Origin: a virus
Length of the DNA stretch: 64,000 nt
Virus genome (UHGV): UHGV-1351569
Reading direction: 5' to 3' (one strand)
Shown in pieces: positions 2,682 through 64,000 of this stretch. Below the pieces are notes generated by a model, which worked only from the letters and a program-made list of their open reading frames with translations, searched no databases and was not told where the DNA came from. Position 1 is the first letter of the stretch, and each line of letters opens with the position of its first letter. The translations under genes and the position numbers were made by a program.

Positions 2682-3209
2682 ATGAACGCTAAAGATATTT
2701 TCAACTTGGTAAATTACAACGATGGTAAATTTAAATCTGAAGCACAAAGCAAGTTCTTTAACGACATCTCAATCGGAGGTGAAATTACTGTTGATGGAGG
2801 ACAAATTTACAAATCCCGTTGGAATTGGATCGTTATTATCGATGAGATTGGTATTGTAGAAATTTACAAGAATACGAATAAAAATCGTACATTACACTGG
2901 TCTCGTGATACTAATGAACAGTACAAAAAGGATAAAGCATCTAAATTATCTCGTGTAACTCAAGAAGATATTGAGTTCATCAAGAAAGATATTTTAATGT
3001 ATGATAACTTAATTGCTGAAGAGCAAGCTGTTATTGATAAATTTGACGAGATTAAAGCTTCTCGTGAAATTCCTGATTTTATGAAAGAATCAGTAAATGA
3101 ACGATACTCTCTCATTTCAGAGCGTATTGAAACTTACAAAAAGCAAAGAGCTGAACGCCAAAATACTCTTCGGAAGTTTGAAGAACGGTTAAAGACGGTA
3201 CTCGCATAA
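2682..3209 (+). CDS. Hypothetical protein, 175 aa
   Basis: ORF track; GGAGG RBS 7 nt upstream of ATG. Confidence 0.65.
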   Translation: MNAKDIFNLVNYNDGKFKSEAQSKFFNDISIGGEITVDGGQIYKSRWNWIVIIDEIGIVEIYKNTNKNRTLHWSRDTNEQYKKDKASKLSRVTQEDIEFIKKDILMYDNLIAEEQAVIDKFDEIKASREIPDFMKESVNERYSLISERIETYKKQRAERQNTLRKFEERLKTVLA

Positions 3210-3264
3210 CCGCTTTATACCAAGGATGGTATAATGGTTCTAAGCCCTTTTAATTGAGATTGTT

Positions 3265-3680: not shown

Positions 3681-4568
3681 ATGTCAGTAGTAATTAATAA
3701 TGTCAATGCAGTAATTAAATCTTTAGTTAATAAAAAATTGAATGAATGGACTGTACTTCGTCGTGGAGAGCCAGATAAATTTTTTCATAGATTTAACCCA
3801 ACTTTGGATTTGAATGTTATTGACAGAGATGTTCATGCTGAAATTTTAGATAAATTTAAAGTTGATATTGGGTTTGGATTAGATAAACATTTACAACGAA
3901 CAAACGGGTCTGGAATGGGTTTATCTAATCGCATCATGAAAGCCCTTAATAAAATTGGAGCGTTGTCTCGTATTAATGCGAGTGAAATCCTTCGTAATTA
4001 TAATAAAGGATATGACCTTTATGGTCGACTAATGCCAAAATTATCATTCGATCAAATGATTGCGGATTTGTGGGAAAATCAACGACGATTATTAGCATTG
4101 GGAGCTCGATTAGCTAAAGGTCTAGATAAACAAATGATTTTTAAGACCAATAATACAGAAGACCTTAAATGCTTTAAATTTAGTATTCGTGGCGATGATT
4201 ATTACATCAGAACTCGCTCCACAGATTATGTCAATATGGGCCATCATCTCTGTTTAGCTTTTGAAGTTTTAAAAGAAGCTGGAACATTAGAATATACGTC
4301 TGGTACTAAATGCCCGATTGGTTCAAATTGTATTTTGATTTATCGCCCGGATGAATCCAGTTCAACTAAATTGCCTACGAAACCTGTACCAGTTCGTAGT
4401 AATGAAAAACATTCTGAACAAATTGATTATTTTAATAAGCAAATTGAAGAGCTGAATATTTCTATTCAACAGTATGACGATGAAATTTTCAGACTATCTG
4501 GATTGAGTAGTAAAGCTAAATCTGAGCGTGAAAAGTTAATTAAAATTGTCGATTTACTTAAATCTTAA
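3681..4568 (+). CDS. Member 1 of a tandem array of proteins with a C-terminal coiled-coil tail (295 aa)
   Basis: ORF track 3666..4568; start moved to ATG 3681 behind TGAGGAAAAT; C-terminal heptad-like segment QIEELNISIQQYDDEIFRL...EREKLIKIVDLLKS. Confidence 0.65.
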   Translation: MSVVINNVNAVIKSLVNKKLNEWTVLRRGEPDKFFHRFNPTLDLNVIDRDVHAEILDKFKVDIGFGLDKHLQRTNGSGMGLSNRIMKALNKIGALSRINASEILRNYNKGYDLYGRLMPKLSFDQMIADLWENQRRLLALGARLAKGLDKQMIFKTNNTEDLKCFKFSIRGDDYYIRTRSTDYVNMGHHLCLAFEVLKEAGTLEYTSGTKCPIGSNCILIYRPDESSSTKLPTKPVPVRSNEKHSEQIDYFNKQIEELNISIQQYDDEIFRLSGLSSKAKSEREKLIKIVDLLKS

Positions 4569-4576
4569 GGAACACC

Positions 4577-5605
4577 ATGAAAACTCGTTCTCAAATTGAA
4601 GATATGGTTCGTAACGCCAGCTATACTCGTGATGTTATGACATTTTTGTGCCAAAATAATTTAGACCCTGATAAAGTTAATCGTGTTATTCATCACTTTA
4701 AGTATACGAATAGCAGTGAATGGGTGCGTAATTTTAGTAAAGCGGGGTATATTACACAAATGACTGCTCGTGAGCAGCTCACCGATTTCTGTAAAACTAT
4801 TGATTATAAAAATCCTCTATTTGTTCAAGGCGTTGGTCAAAGTAAGGTCGATTTATCAACAGGATTTTTTAATCCAAATCATTATCGTATTGAATGGAGA
4901 TTTATTGCTCTATTCCGTAAACAATTAAAGCAAATTTTGTCTACTGCTAGTCGATTAAAAGGTTCTGATATTAACTTAAAGAATCTGAAATTTGATGGTT
5001 ATACTCTTCAGATGGAAGTAAGACCATTAAAAGAAAATAACAGAACTGCACGAATTAGCTTTAAACCTAATACAAAAAATTCTCTTTCAATTTGCGAATG
5101 CCTTAAATCGCAGTTGACAGAAGCATTTAAGTATATGGATGTTGTTGCTGCTGTTCAGTCTAAGATTTCACAACATTTCGAACGATTTAAATTAGACACA
5201 ACAACATATGAACTTGATATGATCGTTTCATTTAAATATGAATTTTTGAGAAAGGACGAAGTTACACAAGAGAAAAAGCAAGAAGTGCAAGATAACTTAA
5301 ATTTAAATTTATCCAATTACTCATCAAACGATCCTAAATTTTGGATGTATAGTTCAGGTAATAAGGATGCATGGAAATTCAATAAAGTGAATTTTCTTCC
5401 TGTTGAAAATCCGAGTCTTAAACCTGTTGAAAAATGGCATGCAGATGCGATTGAGAAGTCTATCAAGGCAGTAGATGATGAACTCGTTAAAGCAACTAAT
5501 GAAGTGCTAGAAGCTGAAAAGATGCTAGAAAAAGCTCAAGAAAAAGTCAAAAATCTCACGAAGCAACGTTCTAAACTGAACAATGCACTAAATGCACTGA
5601 ACTAG
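4577..5605 (+). CDS. Member 2 of the coiled-coil-tailed array (342 aa)
   Basis: ORF track; C-terminal coiled-coil-like tail ...LEAEKMLEKAQEKVKNLTKQRSKLNNALNALN. Confidence 0.65.
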   Translation: MKTRSQIEDMVRNASYTRDVMTFLCQNNLDPDKVNRVIHHFKYTNSSEWVRNFSKAGYITQMTAREQLTDFCKTIDYKNPLFVQGVGQSKVDLSTGFFNPNHYRIEWRFIALFRKQLKQILSTASRLKGSDINLKNLKFDGYTLQMEVRPLKENNRTARISFKPNTKNSLSICECLKSQLTEAFKYMDVVAAVQSKISQHFERFKLDTTTYELDMIVSFKYEFLRKDEVTQEKKQEVQDNLNLNLSNYSSNDPKFWMYSSGNKDAWKFNKVNFLPVENPSLKPVEKWHADAIEKSIKAVDDELVKATNEVLEAEKMLEKAQEKVKNLTKQRSKLNNALNALN

Positions 5606-5634
5606 TTTACTTTACCACAGGGATGTGGTATAAT
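5605..5634 (+). promoter_or_regulatory. T4-type early promoter (GTTTAC ... TGGTATAAT)
   Basis: Consensus -35 GTTTAC and extended -10 TGGTATAAT with 17-bp spacing, starting right after the preceding stop codon. Confidence 0.65.
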
Positions 5635-5662
5635 GTTCTTACTTTCTACTGAGGAGATTAAT

Positions 5663-6664
5663 ATGACTCGTAACGAATATATCAAATCATTCAATAGCGT
5701 TATTGATGATAAAGCTATACCGATGTTTGGCCAAAATAGCGTTCTTTCTATTATCAATCAATGGCTCAATAGTGTTGATGCAAGTATTGTTTCTTCTACT
5801 AAATTTATTCATGAAATTCGTAAAATTTCTAGCCGTGTAGATAAAGATGTTATCAAGAAAACCTTTAAAGAGTCTCGTCTTCTTTCATATTTGGTTAATC
5901 GGGATATTCTTGGTAATTTTGGGAAAGAAATTAAACGAACCAAAGATGTAGTAGGATATAATTGGTTCGGTGATGTTAATTCTTATCATCTTAATAATAA
6001 AGAAGACCCTGAGAATATTTTTACTCGTCGTTGGATTAGTAATTTCAGACTTTTCAAAGGACAGATTCTAAAATCAGCTTCTAAATTATGTTATGGCGAT
6101 TATCGTCAAATTCATCCTTTGGCTTCTGATATGATTATCATAAAAGAATATGAACTTGATAAAAATAAAGTATCTATTTTTGTGAATTATGGATTTTTTA
6201 CACCAGAAACTAACCAAAAGAATATTAATAAATTTTTCTCAATTGCTAGCACTATAACTCGTCAATTAGAGACCGCATTACTTTGTATGGAAACAGTAGA
6301 AAATATTCATACATATCCTTTTAAGAATATATGCGGATGGGAAGGATATAAAATTGTAATTAGTCTTCGTGAAGTGAAATGTGCTTATTCACCTACTGAT
6401 AAAGAAATTTATCAACAAAAATGTGAGGAAATTGTGAATACTCCTAAAGAAGAAACTACCCTTGAGGAACTAATGGAATGTCTTGATGATTCACCTGAAC
6501 CGGTAGAAATTCGTCCAGAAGTTATTGCATTAGAAAAAGCTTATAAAGAAGTTCTAGAAATTTCTAATAAAGCGCAGAAAGAATATGAGCAGGCTAAAAG
6601 GATTTGGGAAGAATCTGTTAATCGTCTTGATCGTCTGGAACAAGCTTTACAGTTAATTAAGTAA
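5663..6664 (+). CDS. Member 3 of the coiled-coil-tailed array (333 aa)
   Basis: ORF track 5633..6664; the 5633 ATG lies inside the promoter -10, so start moved to ATG 5663 behind GAGGAG; C-terminal tail ...QKEYEQAKRIWEESVNRLDRLEQALQLIK. Confidence 0.65.
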   Translation: MTRNEYIKSFNSVIDDKAIPMFGQNSVLSIINQWLNSVDASIVSSTKFIHEIRKISSRVDKDVIKKTFKESRLLSYLVNRDILGNFGKEIKRTKDVVGYNWFGDVNSYHLNNKEDPENIFTRRWISNFRLFKGQILKSASKLCYGDYRQIHPLASDMIIIKEYELDKNKVSIFVNYGFFTPETNQKNINKFFSIASTITRQLETALLCMETVENIHTYPFKNICGWEGYKIVISLREVKCAYSPTDKEIYQQKCEEIVNTPKEETTLEELMECLDDSPEPVEIRPEVIALEKAYKEVLEISNKAQKEYEQAKRIWEESVNRLDRLEQALQLIK

Positions 6665-6716
6665 TTTAAAGCCAAGGATGGCTCGGAGTATAAACTATTA
6701 ACCAAGTGAGAAGAAC

Positions 6717-7643
6717 ATGAAAACTCGTAAACATTATATTGATTATTTTGACAGTCTTATTACTAAACATCGTAATTATCAGATAGGACACAGAGCAGTA
6801 ATCAATAATATTCTTCGTGATTTTTTAGACTATATTGGATGGGAAAACCATATTTGTAAAGATACACAAAATGCGTATTCACATTCTCTTGGTTCTTTGC
6901 TCGAGTGGTTCAAACGTTCCCGATTACTATCTTCTGTGATAGCTGTTAATAATGTTAAAAAATTTATGTATCCAAGCTACATTGAGACTAATGTATCAAA
7001 TGCTAGTGTTGTTACATTTAATATTATTAACGACGTGAAAAGAACTTATTTAGAAGAATGGTTTTCTAAAGATAGTAAAGAAAAATTTGCCAGTGAGTTT
7101 TCACACGAATTTAATAATAATGTGAATATGCTTTTTAAGCATTCTCGTAGACTGTTTTGTCATGGCGATGACCGTACTATTAATGTAAATGTAAAAGATT
7201 GGGTTACGGCTAAATTCATTCCATCATCACAGAATGGACCATTTGAATTGTCAATTATTGTTTGTGCTCCGCATGAAATATATAAAAATATTCCATATAT
7301 GAAACCATGTGAAGCTAATAAACATAATAAAACGATTCGTTCTTTGACTTATAATCTTCGTACGTTATTGTCTAAAATGGACGTAGTTGAATCCTTTGAT
7401 GATAATACGAATTATGGTCTTTCACTATTTGAAACTAAAGTTGTTATTAAGTTAAAGGACCCTAGTAAATTTAAACCTACGCCAAAGCCCAATCGTGGGA
7501 ATGATACTATGAAAGAAGAACGCGAATATCTCAGTGCTCGTTTGATTGAAGTTGAAAAACAGATTGAAGAGCATACTAAAGTTATTAAGGCTTTAACTGC
7601 CAAAGCAAATGGTTTACGTGATGCTATTGAGGTACTGAAATGA
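6717..7643 (+). CDS. Member 4 of the coiled-coil-tailed array (308 aa)
   Basis: ORF track; C-terminal tail ...[42 protein letters not shown]. Confidence 0.65.
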   Translation: MKTRKHYIDYFDSLITKHRNYQIGHRAVINNILRDFLDYIGWENHICKDTQNAYSHSLGSLLEWFKRSRLLSSVIAVNNVKKFMYPSYIETNVSNASVVTFNIINDVKRTYLEEWFSKDSKEKFASEFSHEFNNNVNMLFKHSRRLFCHGDDRTINVNVKDWVTAKFIPSSQNGPFELSIIVCAPHEIYKNIPYMKPCEANKHNKTIRSLTYNLRTLLSKMDVVESFDDNTNYGLSLFETKVVIKLKDPSKFKPTPKPNRGNDTMKEEREYLSARLIEVEKQIEEHTKVIKALTAKANGLRDAIEVLK

Positions 7644-7957
7644 AAAAGCGTTTATTAGAAGATATTGCAGCTTCAAGTAATTCCAGTCTAATTAAAATTA
7701 TTATGGCTGGTGAAGAAGACGATCTGGAAATGCGTGGAAAGATTCATGGTTGTGACGATTTAGATTTTAAACCTCCAGCTTGGGATGCCATTATGGCTAT
7801 GGTTGAACGTCGCGAAAGGGCTTCTAAAAGCGTTCCTAATTGTCCTGAATGCGGTACTGAACAGGTTCAATTAGTCCATTGGCAGACTAGTAATCTTCGT
7901 TATAAATGCCGTCATTGCAAACACCGATTTAACCGAGAAGAAAATGACCAAGCGTAA
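7640..7957 (+). CDS. Hypothetical protein with C-terminal zinc-ribbon (CPECG...CRHCKH), 105 aa
   Basis: ORF track; ATGA overlap with upstream stop; two CxxC pairs. Confidence 0.6.
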
Positions 7958-8171
7958 AGAATATATGGAGATTGCTGAAAAGGCAGTACGTGAATTAGCA
8001 ATAGCATATTATAATGAACATGGTAAATTTCCTGATAGATACAGCGTGCTTAAATCTGCTTTAACTCGTTCATATAAAAATATGCTATCAGAAGTAAGTG
8101 ATATTATTACAAACATAAAGAACAAACGGGCCAAAGTCTTGATTACGACGAGACTTTTAAACAAGTACTAG
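7944..8171 (+). CDS. Hypothetical protein, 75 aa
   Basis: ORF track; overlaps upstream gene end. Confidence 0.5.
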
Positions 8172-9953: not shown

Positions 9954-10427
9954 ATGTTATTGACTGGCAAATTATATAAAGAAGAAAAACAGAAATTTTA
10001 TGATGCGCAAAACGGTAAATGCTTAATTTGCCAACGAGAACTAAATCCTGATGTTCAAGCTAATCACCTTGACCATGACCATGAATTAAATGGACCAAAA
10101 GCAGGAAAGGTACGTGGATTGCTCTGTAATCTCTGTAATGCTGCAGAAGGTCAAATGAAGCATAAATTCAATCGTTCTGGCTTAAAGGGACAAGGTGTTG
10201 ATTATCTTGAATGGCTAGAAAATTTACTTACTTATTTAAAATCCGATTACACCCAAAATAATATTCACCCTAACTTCGTTGGAGATAAATCAAAGGAATT
10301 TTCTCGTTTAGGAAAAGAGGAAATGATGGCTGAGATGCTTCAAAGAGGATTTGAATATAATGAATCTGACACTAAAACACAATTAATAGCTTCATTTAAG
10401 AAGCAGCTTAGAAAGAGTTTAAAATGA
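9954..10427 (+). CDS. 49: Recombination endonuclease VII (Holliday junction resolvase), 157 aa
   Basis: MLLTGKLYKEEKQKFYDAQNGKCLICQ...HLDHDHELNG matches recalled T4 gp49; length identical. Confidence 0.9.
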   Translation: MLLTGKLYKEEKQKFYDAQNGKCLICQRELNPDVQANHLDHDHELNGPKAGKVRGLLCNLCNAAEGQMKHKFNRSGLKGQGVDYLEWLENLLTYLKSDYTQNNIHPNFVGDKSKEFSRLGKEEMMAEMLQRGFEYNESDTKTQLIASFKKQLRKSLK

Positions 10428-13286
10428 CAATTGAAAAAGAAATTGAAGGATTGATTCATAAAACTAATAAAGACCTTTTAAACGAGAATGCTAATAAAGA
10501 TTCTCGTGTTTTTCCAACTCAACGGGACCTTATGGCTGGTATTGTGTCTAAACACATTGCCAAAAATATGGTCCCGTCTTTTATTATGAAAGCGCATGAA
10601 AGCGGAATTATCCATTTCCATGATATTGATTATTCCCCTGCTCTTCCATTTACTAATTGCTGTTTAGTAGATTTAAAAGGAATGCTTGAAAACGGATTTA
10701 AGCTCGGTAATGCACAGATTGAAACTCCTAAATCAATCGGCGTTGCTACTGCAATTATGGCACAAATTACTGCACAGGTTGCTTCCCACCAATATGGCGG
10801 AACGACTTTTGCGAATGTAGATAAAGTACTTTCTCCTTATGTTAAACGCACCTATGCAAAACATATTGAGGATGCAGAAAAATGGCAAATCGCTGATGCG
10901 TTGAATTATGCTCAATCCAAAACAGAAAAAGATGTCTATGATGCATTCCAGGCGTATGAGTTAATTTAATTCAGGCTCATGTAAAACCGGTCTAAACGGG
11001 GAACCTCTCTAGTAGACAATCCCGTGCTAAATGTTCTTTTGAACTAAATGCCTAACGACTAACCGTGATGAATGTAGCGGTGTAGAATAGAAGCTAATGC
11101 TATTCGAAACGGCCGGCATCGAAAGATGAAGATATAGTCTAATCTGCATGGCGACATGCAGCAGTCATCTTGTATAAATAAGATTATCTTATGAATACGA
11201 GGTGAAACAATGAAATGGATAAAAAGACGTTGTACTAAAATAAAAGATAAAGACGCATTTACATACTTAGTTAAGTTTTCTAATGGCGACATTTATATCG
11301 GTTATAAAAAAGTTAGAACAATTAAAAACAAGCCCACAAACTGGAAAACTTACACAACGTCATCTAAGTATATAAATGAACGCTTAAAAACTGATACACC
11401 TACTAAATGGATAATTTTAAAAACATTTGATAGTTATAAAGACGCATTAAAACATGAAGAAGAGGTCATACGTAAATATTTTTATAGCAAAAAATGTTTA
11501 AATAAATCCATAGGCGGTAAAAAGTTTTATAAGCATCCGGATACTGAAGAACATATTCAAAAATTAAGAGATGCTCATAAGGGTAAAGTGTTATCCGAAT
11601 CTCATAAAAACAATATAAAATCTTCTGTAGCTGAATATTATGCTAAAAACGGAAGATCTAAGGAACATGTGCAAAATAATATCAATAGTCGAAAAAGTAA
11701 AAAACAAGTATCGATAAAGCTTAAAAATAAAACTTTTAGAAGTTTTAAAAAAGCGGCGGAATATTTAAATTGCACTGAAAGTGAAGTCGAAACTCATCCT
11801 CTTGTTTTGAGTATTAAGACTACTATTCATAAAGTTCCTGAATATGTGGTTGTTGACGGTATTAAGTATACGTCTTATATAGAAGCAGCTAAAGCGCTAA
11901 ATTTTCATCCTAGCACTATAAAAGAACGTTGCGTATCTATGGACTATCCAAATTTTGTTGTTTCATATAAACGGGCATGAATTTGCGACTCATGCCGAAT
12001 ATAATGATGAAGTAAATACACTTTTCAGCTCTAATGGACAAACGCCTTTTGTAACAATTACGTTTGGTACGGGAACTGACTGGACTGAACGAATGATTCA
12101 GAAAGCAATTCTGAAAAATCGTATTAAAGGTCTTGGTCGCGATGGGATAACTCCTATTTTCCCTAAGCTTGTTATGTTCGTTGAAGAAGGTGTTAATCTT
12201 TATAAAGATGACCCGAACTATGATATTAAACAGCTTGCTCTAGAGTGCGCAAGCAAAAGAATGTATCCTGACATCATTTCGGCTAAGAACAATAAAGCTA
12301 TCACCGGTTCATCTATTCCTGTTTCTCCAATGGGTTGCCGCAGTTTCTTGAGCGTATGGAAAGATTCGACTGGTAATGAAATTCTTGATGGACGTAATAA
12401 TCTTGGCGTTGTAACACTGAATCTTCCTCGCATCGCGTTAGATTCTTATATTGGAACACAGTTCAATGAACAGAAATTTGCCGAATTGTTCAATGAACGA
12501 ATGGATTTATGTTTTGAAGCTTTGATGTGTAGAATTAGTTCCTTAAAAGGAGTTAAAGCGACTGTTGCTCCTATTCTTTATCAAGAAGGTGCATTCGGGG
12601 TTCGTCTTAAACCAGATGACGACATAATTGAGTTATTTAAAAACGGTAGAAGTTCAGTGTCTTTGGGATACATTGGTATTCACGAATTGAATATTCTTGT
12701 CGGTCGTGATATTGGGCAGGAAATTTTGACTAAAATGAATGCTCATCTTAAGCAGTGGACTGAAAGAACCGGTTTTGCTTTTAGTTTGTATTCTACACCT
12801 GCTGAAAACCTGTGCTATCGCTTCTGTAAACTTGATACCGAAAAATATGGAAGTGTAAAGGATGTTACTGATAAAGGCTGGTACACTAACAGTTTCCATG
12901 TTTCAGTAGAAGAAAATATCACTCCGTTTGAAAAGATTTCTCGTGAAGCGCCATATCATTTCATTGCGACAGGTGGTCACATTTCTTATGTTGAACTTCC
13001 TGATATGAAAAATAACTTAAAAGGTCTTGAGGCTGTATGGGATTATGCTGCACAACATTTAGATTATTTTGGCGTTAACATGCCAGTAGATAAATGTTTT
13101 ACGTGTGGAAGTACCCATGAAATGACTCCTACTGAAAACGGGTTTGTTTGTTCTATTTGTGGAGAAACTGATCCTAAAAAGATGAACACAATAAGAAGAA
13201 CTTGTGGTTATTTGGGAAATCCGAACGAACGTGGATTTAATCTTGGCAAAAATAAAGAAATCATGCATAGGGTTAAACACCAATGA
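10424..13286 (+). CDS. nrdD: Anaerobic ribonucleotide reductase NrdD, interrupted by a group I intron (exon 1 10424..about 10961, exon 2 about 11995..13286)
   Basis: Exon 1 (181 codons) and exon 2 (C-terminal about 430 codons) match recalled T4 NrdD; frame breaks with TAA at 10967; splice points are inferred from the recalled 1033-nt T4 intron length. Confidence 0.8.
11173..11180 (+). promoter_or_regulatory. Late promoter box TATAAATA upstream of the intron ORF
   Basis: Exact TATAAATA about 30 nt upstream of the endonuclease ATG. Confidence 0.45.
11210..11980 (+). CDS. Intron-encoded GIY-YIG homing endonuclease (I-TevII-like), 256 aa
   Basis: N-terminal YLVKFSNGDIYIGYKK (GIY...YIG motif); sits inside the nrdD intron as I-TevII does in T4. 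Confidence 0.8.
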   Translation: MKWIKRRCTKIKDKDAFTYLVKFSNGDIYIGYKKVRTIKNKPTNWKTYTTSSKYINERLKTDTPTKWIILKTFDSYKDALKHEEEVIRKYFYSKKCLNKSIGGKKFYKHPDTEEHIQKLRDAHKGKVLSESHKNNIKSSVAEYYAKNGRSKEHVQNNINSRKSKKQVSIKLKNKTFRSFKKAAEYLNCTESEVETHPLVLSIKTTIHKVPEYVVVDGIKYTSYIEAAKALNFHPSTIKERCVSMDYPNFVVSYKRA

Positions 13287-61690: not shown

Positions 61691-62347
61691 TTATTTAGCC
61701 CTTCCTAATATTCTGGCCGCCTGAGCACATATTGATTCAAGGCGGTCATTACTTATATGATCATTTCTATACCAGTACATGGTTATCGTTCCAGCATAGA
61801 TATTATCCAAATTAAAATATGGACAACTGTACATGTAGTTTATTTCGGGAGTAGGCTTTTTAGTTGGTAAAAAAGCAAATTTTGAGTTGGAATAATAATG
61901 ACGTCCATTTAAATGAACTGTATATTCATCCATAGTTTTATCAACAGGATATCCTCCAAGTGATTTTTCACTTATTGTTGAAGGTAATTTTCCTTCGTAT
62001 GCTATAATATCAACAAAATAGTTTAAGTTTTTAGGGCGGAAAGAATATACCGCACTAAAGTCTGCCTCAGATGATATATGAACTATCTGGAGTTGTTCCA
62101 GGGCGACAGATTCAAAGCGTGCATTTCTTTCCTTTTCAATAATTTCACTGTATGTTTCATACTTTGATTGCTTATAGTACTCAAAGAAACTATCTCCCCT
62201 ATACCAAACAATCGCCATCATAAATAAAAGAATTACGACAGCTACCCGGGAAGCAAGAACTTTCCCGGTAGCGTTATCTTTGAACAAGCGATCTAGAACA
62301 CCAAACAGAATATCAGAGGGCGAAAATGATATTCTAGGTGCTGCCAT
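61691..62347 (-). CDS. t: Holin T, 218 aa
   Basis: MAAPRISFSPSDILFGVLDRLFKDNATGKVLASR... matches recalled T4 holin; strong AAGGAGG RBS; single TM segment. Confidence 0.92.
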   Translation of the reverse strand: MAAPRISFSPSDILFGVLDRLFKDNATGKVLASRVAVVILLFMMAIVWYRGDSFFEYYKQSKYETYSEIIEKERNARFESVALEQLQIVHISSEADFSAVYSFRPKNLNYFVDIIAYEGKLPSTISEKSLGGYPVDKTMDEYTVHLNGRHYYSNSKFAFLPTKKPTPEINYMYSCPYFNLDNIYAGTITMYWYRNDHISNDRLESICAQAARILGRAK

Positions 62348-62378
62348 AGACCCTCCTTTTAAGGATATTTATTCAAAA

Positions 62379-63185
62379 TTATACTCTTGGACCATATATT
62401 GCTCCAACATTTTGCCATGTTGGAGCAGACCCTATGACAGCATAACCAGCAGCTCCGCCGGCACCGACTTTGAGTACTTTACCTCCGTCATACCAGGCAT
62501 TTTGCCCATTTGCGCCAGCATCACCACCCTGGCCAGAGTGAGCATTACCATAATTATAACCACCTCCTGGGCCATCATAAGAAGCTGCGCCGCCGGAATA
62601 ACCTCCGCCTCCTCCTGGGCCAAATGGTCTTCCTCCACCACCACCAATATCTTGCCAATTTGCACCAGAGTGAGGACGATAAGCGATACCGCCTCCACCT
62701 CCACCTCCACCGCAAATTACTCCACCGTTATTAATTCTTAATCGTCCACCGATGTCATTTTGAATACAATGACCACCTTGTTGACCATTACCATCTCCGC
62801 CAGAATGAGTCCATCCACCTTGTCCACCTCTACCCCACATATGGACGCCTCCACCAATATTCAATTGAACATATTCATTAGGTGTATCTCCATACATAAA
62901 GAATAAAGGAACGTCTCTAGAATATGATACCAAATTTCCGGTAATATTAAACACTATAGGTGCACTACCTGCCTCAAAACATCTATCTCGGAACCATTGA
63001 CCATTGAAGTTATGGTCCGCTCCAAGGGTGTGAATTACTTCAACAGATCGACCTATCATATTACTCATCCAGAACGGAATGCCCATTCTTAATCGTTGGG
63101 CCGCACCACCCATCCAATTTTGTCCTGTATTAACTACTGCAGACCATCCTACCCACGGTCCTTCAACTGCCATATAAACCTCCAA
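62379..63185 (-). CDS. 38: gp38 tail-fibre adhesin, T2/T6 type with glycine-rich motifs, 268 aa
   Basis: Poly-Gly blocks ([27 protein letters not shown]) separated by variable segments; sits between t and 37. Confidence 0.75.
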
Positions 63186-63200
63186 GGGGCCGAAGCCCCT
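63186..63200 (-). terminator. Hairpin GGGGC-TTCG-GCCCC between gene 37 and gene 38 (function uncertain)
   Basis: Stable hairpin 2 nt upstream of the gene 38 RBS; may stabilise or attenuate the transcript. Confidence 0.35.
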
Positions 63201-63204
63201 CTTA

Positions 63205-64000
63205 TTATTTTAACAATGATTTAACTAATGCTTTAAGTTCTTCAATTTCTGATTTAAGTTCCGCAATTTCTGCAGTATGCTCATTGATTGCAGCTGTATT
63301 TAAACCAATTACACCGTTATAGTTCAAACGAAGTAAAGCTTCGCCATCAGGGTCACCTTCAACTAATTCAGGTAAAATAGCTTGAACTTCTTGAGCTATC
63401 AAACCTGCGTTAGGTTCCCATTTCTGATTGCCTTCTTCATCTAGGCCTCGCTTCTGCATATAAGTGTAACCGTTAATTTTAGAAAGCTTCTGAGAAGCAT
63501 TTTCAAATTTAACAAGGTCTTTTTTAACGCGAATATCAGAACGGACATAAACATCACGGACAAACGTTGAATAACTATCATTTGCCTGAACGAGATGCCC
63601 ATGAGAAACGATAGCTCTTCCAGTTTCTGTCCAAAAAGCACCGGTTGAATCCCAAAGCCCAGGATGAGATTGATAGCCTGCTCCCCAGTTTGCAATATGT
63701 ATACCATTGGCAACCATATTGATTCGGCCGTCACCACCATGAACTAATCCAGTATCATTATCACCAATAACAAGACATGGTCCAGTCCACACCGGGTCAC
63801 CACCGCCAGCTGATAGTCTTGCTCCAGTTTGAACCATATTAGGAGCATACAGAACTCCATTGTGGTGGAATTCATAGATAGCTTGCGGATCGCTAGCATT
63901 TTCCTGGTTACCAACACGGATAATAGCCTGAGCCCATTGGTTAGTGGTACGGCGCATACCAAAATCTACGCCTGATACGTATCCTTCGTTAGTAATGACA
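63205..64000 (-). CDS. 37: Long tail fibre distal subunit gp37, C-terminal part (partial; continues beyond the window)
   Basis: Frame stays open to the window edge upstream of the first Met; C-terminus has an intramolecular-chaperone-like motif ([10 protein letters not shown]...) and terminal coiled coil. Confidence 0.8.

Follow-up and report, generated by a model that had tools for sequence, protein, structure and literature searches.

Tandem nrdC.6 to nrdC.3 genes of a T4-like phage as diverged paralogues with a conserved C-terminal helix and a candidate role in counter-defence

Overview

This report concerns four consecutive genes in a 64,000-nucleotide stretch of the virus genome UHGV-1351569, referred to here as the window, which is a segment of a T4-like (Tequatrovirus) genome read along early transcription. 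The genes lie on the plus strand and were designated A (3681..4568; 295 amino acids), B (4577..5605; 342 amino acids), C (5663..6664; 333 amino acids) and D (6717..7643; 308 amino acids); they are the orthologues of T4 nrdC.6, nrdC.5, nrdC.4 and nrdC.3, respectively. Comparison of their products supported the conclusion that all four belong to one superfamily of diverged paralogues, and the array was best explained as early, dispensable, tandem paralogues of a single Straboviridae superfamily. The reading that we favour, with a probability of roughly 0.6, is that the array encodes a set of paralogues that inhibit immune proteins of the host. B very probably counters Dsr1, as judged from its 95% amino acid identity to T4 NrdC.5; A, C and D would be counter-defence proteins directed at other systems, and inhibition may proceed by direct binding, with oligomerisation through the C-terminal tails.

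The products of A, C and D were 97%, 98% and 95% identical to their T4 counterparts, and both the gene lengths and the gene order between nrdC.7/nrdC.8 and nrdC.2/nrdC.1/nrdC agreed with the T4 annotation, in which all four genes are labelled hypothetical proteins. A Shine-Dalgarno-like GAGG-type site was present upstream of each ATG, and the starts matched the T4 gene lengths. An earlier note, made from the letters of this DNA, had described four consecutive genes for proteins of similar size, two of them beginning MKTR. Both statements were confirmed: the genes are plus-strand open reading frames (ORFs) of 295-342 amino acids with T4 orthologues, and the two MKTR proteins are B and D (C begins MTR). 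B gave a full-length match to DUF7235 (PF23882; profile positions 1-307 of 307), scoring 422 bits where the cut-off is 30 (E = 1.8e-126); D reached 11 bits, with its tail alone matched, and A and C gave no match to this profile. A is assigned to PF26899 in precomputed annotation and to phrog_2257, B to phrog_2351 and C to PF26897; C and D share phrog_1435.

Profile comparisons link the four proteins

When the four products were compared by BLASTP, C and D were the sole significant pair (24% identity over 270 residues, E = 1e-4), in agreement with the low primary identity that the earlier note had reported. Profiles were built from database relatives together with the orthologues encoded by Mosigvirus, Dhakavirus and Gaprivervirus. 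The hhalign probability for C and D was 98.1%, and 98.2% when the bodies alone were aligned. B aligned to a merged C and D profile at 92.4% in local and 96.9% in global mode (E = 5e-7), colinearly over the whole length, with the MKTR/MTR start and the terminal L..AL.LLK included; a profile of B with PM2_092, a 309-amino-acid protein of Pectobacterium phage PM2 whose gene adjoins nrdC.2 in the same genomic slot, gave 95.8% and 98.0% against C and D.

No direct profile-profile link was found between A and the other three proteins. PM2_092 bridged A and B (90% with the A profile and 92.7%, global, with the B profile), and A aligned to a merged profile of B, PM2_092, C and D at 93.8% local and 96.6% global over 204 columns (E = 1.8e-7). 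Pairwise profile alignment, a check that the earlier note had proposed, therefore joined all four, A by way of PM2_092 and the merged profile. A motif common to A to D (GARLAKGLDKQM / ASRLKGSDINL / ASKLCYGDYRQI / SRRLFCHGDDRTI) could also be read from the sequences; in the A and C models it lies at the end of a helix pair, at nearly equal residue numbers (residues 123-132, 134-144 and 147-150 in A; 119-130, 132-142 and 145-148 in C).

Sequence searches by themselves did not join the families. A HMMER search with the C and D profile against 1.84 billion representative proteins recovered nine proteins, all of the C or D type and none of the A or B type. Searches of PDB sequences with B, the C/D profile and the A profile yielded nothing meaningful: caspase matches had E values of about 0.5, and matches to designed helical repeats were rejected as low-complexity artefacts. 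No informative family for A to D was found in Pfam at a permissive threshold, in NCBIfam or in PADLOC; in the last two there was no match with E < 0.001, and the weak matches fell on the tails or far under the curated cut-offs.

Two database relatives, of D (P0228) and of C (P0232), carried many changes from Ser, Pro, Thr, His, Arg or Ala to Phe, Leu, Ile, Tyr, Cys or Val. The pattern is suggestive of C-to-T damage or conversion in the source reads more than of true variation.

Predicted structures of A and C share one topology

AlphaFold2 models were made for A and C, with a mean predicted local distance difference test score (pLDDT) of 79.7 for A and 83.9 for C. Both models followed one order of elements: N-terminal helices lead into short strands, a helix pair and a hairpin; a long helix and a second hairpin come next, and a disordered linker and the tail helix close the chain. 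In A, the body spans residues 1-226, the linker 227-241 and the tail helices 242-271 and 277-294. In C, a helical N-terminal part (3-84) is followed by an alpha/beta part (88-235), a linker with pLDDT < 50 (274-284) and the tail helix (285-332).

Foldseek searches of BFVD with the C model returned an NrdC.3 (E = 2.4e-8) and the NrdC.6 of phage JS10 (E = 1.8e-5), and the A and C models both matched the same proteins of 309-335 amino acids from phages IME523, PM2 and Acj9. Template modelling (TM) scores were modest (0.37-0.49), which we attributed partly to the free orientation of the tail, and A and C were compared by the order of their elements and by their common neighbours. The structure predictions, which covered two of the four proteins that the earlier note had listed for this check, thus agreed in topology and in structural neighbours; a fold common to the whole family is likely, on the strength of these models, but not proven. 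The agreement between A and C, together with the profile links, supported the suggestion in the earlier note of an old, fast-diverging paralogue family.

The design shared by the proteins comprises a basic globular body (about 230-260 residues, helical in its N-terminal part and alpha/beta thereafter), a disordered linker that opens with a P-V motif in A, B and C, and an amphipathic C-terminal helix of 45-55 residues. This matches the layout of a body of roughly 250 residues and a C-terminal segment that had been proposed earlier.

The C model also weakly matched a 175-amino-acid protein of Klebsiella phage KPV15, and the nrdC.8 product was considered as a short member of the family. This candidate was rejected: with no family did the hhalign probability exceed 1%, and an nrdC.8 homologue is absent from KPV15.

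The C-terminal tails show heptad periodicity and conservation

The tails were located at 4404..4565 in A, 5426..5602 in B (residues 284-342, approximately), 6515..6661 in C and 7503..7640 in D (approximately residues 263-308), all on the plus strand. Their heptad periodicity was measured with a home-made score, distinct from COILS or MARCOIL, defined as the hydrophobic fraction at positions a and d minus that at the other positions in the best register. The best-scoring 28-residue segment of the whole protein lay in the tail for A, B and C; for D it was residues 197-224, and the D tail nevertheless scored above 0.55. For each of the four proteins, no more than 2.5% of composition-matched shuffles reached the best score. 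Tail scores ranged from 0.55 to 0.85, with B the strongest in the window (0.75-0.85).

The window has 60 plus-strand ORFs of 100 amino acids or more, and A to D ranked first to fourth in this set for the heptad score of the last 42 residues (0.75, 0.60, 0.58 and 0.55, with the next ORF at 0.42), an outcome with a chance of 1/C(60,4) = 2e-6. The heptad-like pattern that the earlier note had seen in tails of 40-50 residues, and the coiled-coil check that it had called for, were thus upheld by the home-made score. They were also consistent with the AlphaFold2 models, in which the tail of C is a single 48-residue helix and that of A is divided into helices of 30 and 18 residues, each tail preceded immediately by the low-confidence linker. 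The nrdC.8 orthologue showed weak heptad periodicity in its C-terminal half (0.42 over the last 42 residues).

A common ending, L-x-x-[AIV]-[LIV]-x-[LAV]-[LI]-[KN] with an optional extra residue, was present in all four families and in every genus sampled; this motif was derived post hoc and is descriptive, not a statistical test. The A tail carries an invariant DDEIFRL, a break at G-L-S/N and the ending ER.KL..[IV]..LLK[SDE]; the B tail ends in KQRSKLNNALNALN; and WEES.NRLDRLEQAL.L[IL]K is almost invariant in C. Conservation of the tail exceeded that of the body in all four families, and in one relative of C (P0227), only 30% identical overall, the tail was nearly unchanged.

Synonymous (pS) and non-synonymous (pN) differences were counted for tail and body codons in ten cross-genus or cross-allele comparisons. 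Synonymous sites in the tail were saturated in nine of the ten (pS 0.61-0.89), the exception being D against the allele at locus L005 (0.36). Tail pN was below body pN throughout: 0.17-0.28 against 0.40-0.50 for A, 0.36-0.49 against 0.48-0.53 for B, 0.25-0.28 against 0.32-0.39 for C and 0.14-0.19 against 0.24-0.28 for D. With tail pS saturated in all but one comparison and tail pN under that of the body, it is the protein that is conserved, and these counts led us to reject an effect at the DNA level. As judged from codon comparisons, the tails are under purifying selection at the protein level. The stretch at residues 175-275, approximately, was hypervariable by comparison with the near-invariant tail.

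These counts also bear on the possibility that the resemblance among the four is superficial, the proteins being unrelated ones with charged, low-complexity helical ends, or their 3' DNA consisting of recombination or regulatory cassettes. The restriction of significant BLASTP similarity to C and D, the three separate Pfam families, the failure of the C and D profile to retrieve A or B, the spurious matches that coiled coils attract (the designed helical repeats being an example) and the conserved promoter-hairpin cassettes that flank the genes would all be expected if this were so. Set against them are profile alignments that run colinearly through the bodies and remain as strong for C and D when the tails are removed, the topology and Foldseek neighbours common to the A and C models, the bridge between A and B formed by PM2_092, and the protein-level conservation of the tails. 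We regard this explanation as very improbable, and it has been largely refuted.

The array is dispensable, variable and rapidly diverging

By sequence the family is tiny, as reflected in the nine representatives found with the C and D profile. Fold and position give it a wider reach: PM2_092 of Mosugukvirus and Acj9p122 of an Acinetobacter phage (Twarogvirinae) lie between gene 49 and nrdC.10/11 and resemble A to D in size, in a Ser/Pro-rich or P-V linker and in a heptad tail. At the level of predicted fold, the superfamily may reach Mosugukvirus, Acinetobacter phages, Karamvirus-type phages and others. Copy number varied from four in Tequatrovirus to three in Gaprivervirus and Dhakavirus (A, B and C) and in Mosigvirus (A, B and D); in the stretch examined, PM2 and Acj9 had one recognisable copy each, and no copy was found in that slot in Klebsiella phage KPV15 or in RB16.

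Identity across genera was 23-54% for A to D and 67-89% for the flanking NrdC.11, NrdC.8, NrdC and gp49; NrdC.8 (67-86%) was unusually conserved relative to the array. Within Tequatrovirus, D fell into two allele classes of approximately 90-99% and 55-63% identity. At three loci (L002, L005 and L006), nrdC.3 alleles about 95% or 60% identical to the window copy were flanked by genes that were 98-100% identical, which suggests replacement by recombination.

Two natural rearranged proteins were found. One (P0119; three contigs, the longest of 167 kb) joins residues 146-274 of NrdC.5 in frame to residues 134-308 of NrdC.3 through an FN[KN]VN microhomology; the tail of NrdC.5, the whole of nrdC.4 and the beginning of nrdC.3 are lost, and the fusion relates to window positions 5012-5398 and 7116-7643. 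A phage with this fusion appears to be viable without an intact array. The other (P0121; Shigella phage Sf25) is a 378-amino-acid NrdC.6 variant with an internal tandem duplication of residues 176-258 (window 4206-4454), which takes in the latter half of the body and runs through the linker into the first part of the tail. Together, the fusion and the duplication indicated that the array tolerates rearrangement. The evolutionary behaviour of the array, with its signatures of an arms race, fits a role in conflict with the host.

Evidence for and against a counter-defence role

An evolved T4 deletion mutant fails to plate on E. coli ECOR17 owing to the SIR2 defence gene dsr1, and expression of T4 nrdC.5 restores plating on dsr1 cells (Srikant, Guegler and Laub, eLife 2022, PMC9391042). 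The statement in the earlier note that function was unknown does not hold for B, whose T4 orthologue is a published anti-Dsr1 factor; it stood for the other three, as literature searches found nothing on nrdC.3, nrdC.4 or nrdC.6, nor on the kinship of the four. Searches on all four genes and on anti-Dsr1 mechanisms returned the 2022 eLife paper alone, and NrdC.5 is not mentioned in the text of the EVADES preprint.

The array also lies among other anti-defence genes. T4 nrdC.1 is reported to encode a Septu inhibitor, and bas37_0203 of phage Bas37 an inhibitor of Druantia type III (2025 preprint, 10.1101/2025.11.20.689424). From gene order and an equal length of 528 nt, we infer that bas37_0203 is the nrdC.8 orthologue; the nrdC.8 product itself has no sequence relationship to A to D. 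With nrdC.1 acting against Septu, the gene in the nrdC.8 position against Druantia III and nrdC.5 against Dsr1, the region can be described as an anti-defence island.

In the mechanism that we propose, each paralogue would be a stoichiometric inhibitor of a different host immune protein, with B acting on Dsr1. The variable body would supply target specificity, and the tail would either drive self-association, into dimers or higher forms that confer avidity, or provide a second contact. Mimicry of DNA in the manner of Ocr was considered and excluded, because the bodies are basic (isoelectric point 9.0-9.4, net charge +6 to +11) rather than strongly acidic.

Several results weigh against a shared inhibitory role for the array. 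An experimental phenotype exists for one of the four members, nrdC.5, and it comes from a complementation assay. In the HIDEN-SEQ screens, which covered limited hosts and defence systems, nrdC.3, nrdC.4, nrdC.5 and nrdC.6 were not among the new anti-defence factors (10.1101/2025.11.20.689424). The link of A to the other proteins consists of profile-profile probabilities of 90-97%, Foldseek E values of 1e-4 to 1e-6 and TM-scores of 0.37-0.49, with no strong pairwise similarity. Finally, tail conservation extends beyond heptad positions a and d, and each paralogue has its own tail sequence. A simple homo-oligomeric coiled coil does not require conservation beyond a and d, so the tail helix probably has a role beyond that of a generic coiled coil, as far as its conservation pattern can tell. 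The same two features argue against one identical docking motif.

An alternative is that NrdC.5 alone is a counter-defence protein, the other three assisting host take-over in some accessory way, for instance by modulating proteins of the host or phage or by keeping out rival phages, and being kept for reasons other than immunity. Paralogues often switch function, and the literature searches returned no phenotype for nrdC.3, nrdC.4 or nrdC.6; none of the four genes is needed on laboratory hosts, where nrdC.3 to nrdC.6 of T4 and the equivalent genes of Bas37 have been classed as non-essential (10.1101/2025.11.20.689424). However, the fast divergence, the dimorphism of alleles, the variation in copy number and the site between three supported anti-defence genes are a better fit to conflict with the host than to take-over, and we considered this alternative unlikely, if by no means negligible.

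Dsr1 has in common with Avs7 a tetratricopeptide repeat (TPR) sensor that is triggered by the phage major capsid protein (2026 preprint, PMC12803255). The bodies might be decoys that mimic virion structural proteins and occupy the TPR or solenoid sensors of Dsr1, Avs and similar systems without activating them, with one paralogue for each sensor class and the C-terminal helix inserted into the sensor or clamped on it; we judged this improbable. The C body does resemble tail terminators with a lambda gpU-like fold. The combination of a strong structural match, late expression and a virion role that would mark it as a tail terminator was not found. A more specific version, in which NrdC.3 to NrdC.6 are a toolkit of structural-protein look-alikes (the C body being the tail-terminator-like one) that plug repeat-type sensors, B those of the Dsr1/Avs7 type and the others those of the Avs type, with the C-terminal helix as a common lock or oligomerisation module, seemed a slimmer prospect still. 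If it were correct, the array would amount to a battery of decoys with multiple targets, countering recognition of the conserved phage proteome. Inhibition of different immune proteins by diverged paralogues remained the reading that we preferred.

Relationship to known systems

The array is not a new kind of system, because its genes have long been annotated in T4 and the role of nrdC.5 has been published. What appears to be new is that the anti-Dsr1 factor is a member of a tandem family of four paralogues with a conserved C-terminal helix and, among T4-like phages, relatives at the fold level. B is the orthologue of T4 NrdC.5 (DUF7235) by its identity, its identical neighbours and its full-length Pfam match. 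In the published work nrdC.5 is a single uncharacterised gene; its kinship to nrdC.3, nrdC.4 and nrdC.6, the three-part architecture and the conserved tail were not in any paper found. In the databases, A, B and C/D are separate families without a function, whereas here they form one superfamily; PHROGs already pairs C with D.

Anti-defence islands, or hyperplastic regions, of T4-type phages offer a further comparison. The array lies in the variable region from gene 49/nrdC to nrdC.11, the content of which differs by genus; several of its members are paralogues of one another and not unrelated small genes. The mechanism proposed for B can also be likened to that of DSAD1, a phage inhibitor of the SIR2 defence DSR2: DSAD1 neutralises a virion-sensing sirtuin, as B would. 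The likeness is one of proposed mechanism and carries no claim of membership, since DSAD1 involves another host, phage and target, and DSR2 senses the tail tube where Dsr1 senses the capsid protein.

Dsr1, a SIR2 defence, has been little characterised, and the literature searches found no inhibitor of it other than NrdC.5. The paralogues and relatives give an architecture of body, linker and tail that can be dissected, and the natural variation of residues 175-275 relative to the tail allows a specificity surface to be mapped. A, C and D and their allelic variants, including the two nrdC.3 allele classes, are candidates for action against defences that have no identified phage inhibitor. Four linked genes would join the nrdC.1 to nrdC.8 anti-defence island, which helps to explain differences in host range among therapeutic T4-like phages.

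Promoters and hairpins in the array

A lies directly 3' of nrdC.7, and B begins 8 nt after A. C and D are each preceded by a match of their own to a sigma-70/T4-early-type promoter with a hairpin in the spacer. The site between B and C (5606..5634, plus strand) has TTTACT, a 17-nt spacer containing the hairpin TACCACAGGGATGTGGTA, and TATAAT with an upstream TG; the site between C and D (6665..6694, plus strand) has TTTAAA and TATAAA, with the hairpin AGCCAAGGATGGCT in the spacer. Similar elements were present upstream of nrdC.10, nrdC.8 and nrdC.7, and the five intergenic sites (1183-1226, 2623-2666, 3210-3240, 5606-5634 and 6665-6694) have in common a GTTTAC-type -35 element, a TATAAT-type -10 element and a short hairpin in the spacer; the first two are 82% identical over 44 nt.

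According to earlier proposals, promoter/stem-loop (PeSL) cassettes mediate the shuffling of modules in T4-type genomes (PMC2839356, PMC4122927). The elements that flank the array are like PeSLs in combining a promoter with a hairpin, as judged by resemblance and not against the published PeSL consensus; unlike in PeSLs, the hairpin lies inside the promoter spacer.

Genomic context and neighbouring genes

The 5.5 kb around the array was 95-97% identical to hundreds of T-even phages of Escherichia, Shigella and Yersinia, and the neighbours of the array include endonuclease VII, the NrdC thioredoxin and a split nrdD. The orthologues of nrdC.8 (2682..3209; 175 amino acids) and nrdC.1 (7944..8171; 75 amino acids) are both on the plus strand. 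The nrdC.2 orthologue (7640-7957; 105 amino acids) has a C-terminal CxxC...CxxC zinc-ribbon signature and weak NCBIfam matches, one of them to the Lar restriction-alleviation family at E = 0.02, which falls short of the cut-off.

The nrdC.10 orthologue (1236-2217), an AAA-type protein of about 328 amino acids in its relatives, is split into ORFs of 254 and 100 amino acids near position 1933 by one extra C in a run of C, the sequence being GCCCCCAC here, where two related contigs read G-CTCCAC. Either the homopolymer was misread in sequencing or the gene is a true pseudogene. nrdD is interrupted in the window (10424-13286), with exon-like ORFs at 10424-10969 and 11955-13286 on either side of a 256-amino-acid ORF (11210-11980), an arrangement that matches T4, in which nrdD has a group I intron with the homing endonuclease I-TevII. 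At the end of the window (62001-64000), the G+C content, about 0.34 in the rest of the window, rose to 0.43 and the GC skew changed sign (-0.22), which suggests a switch of coding strand or another type of gene.

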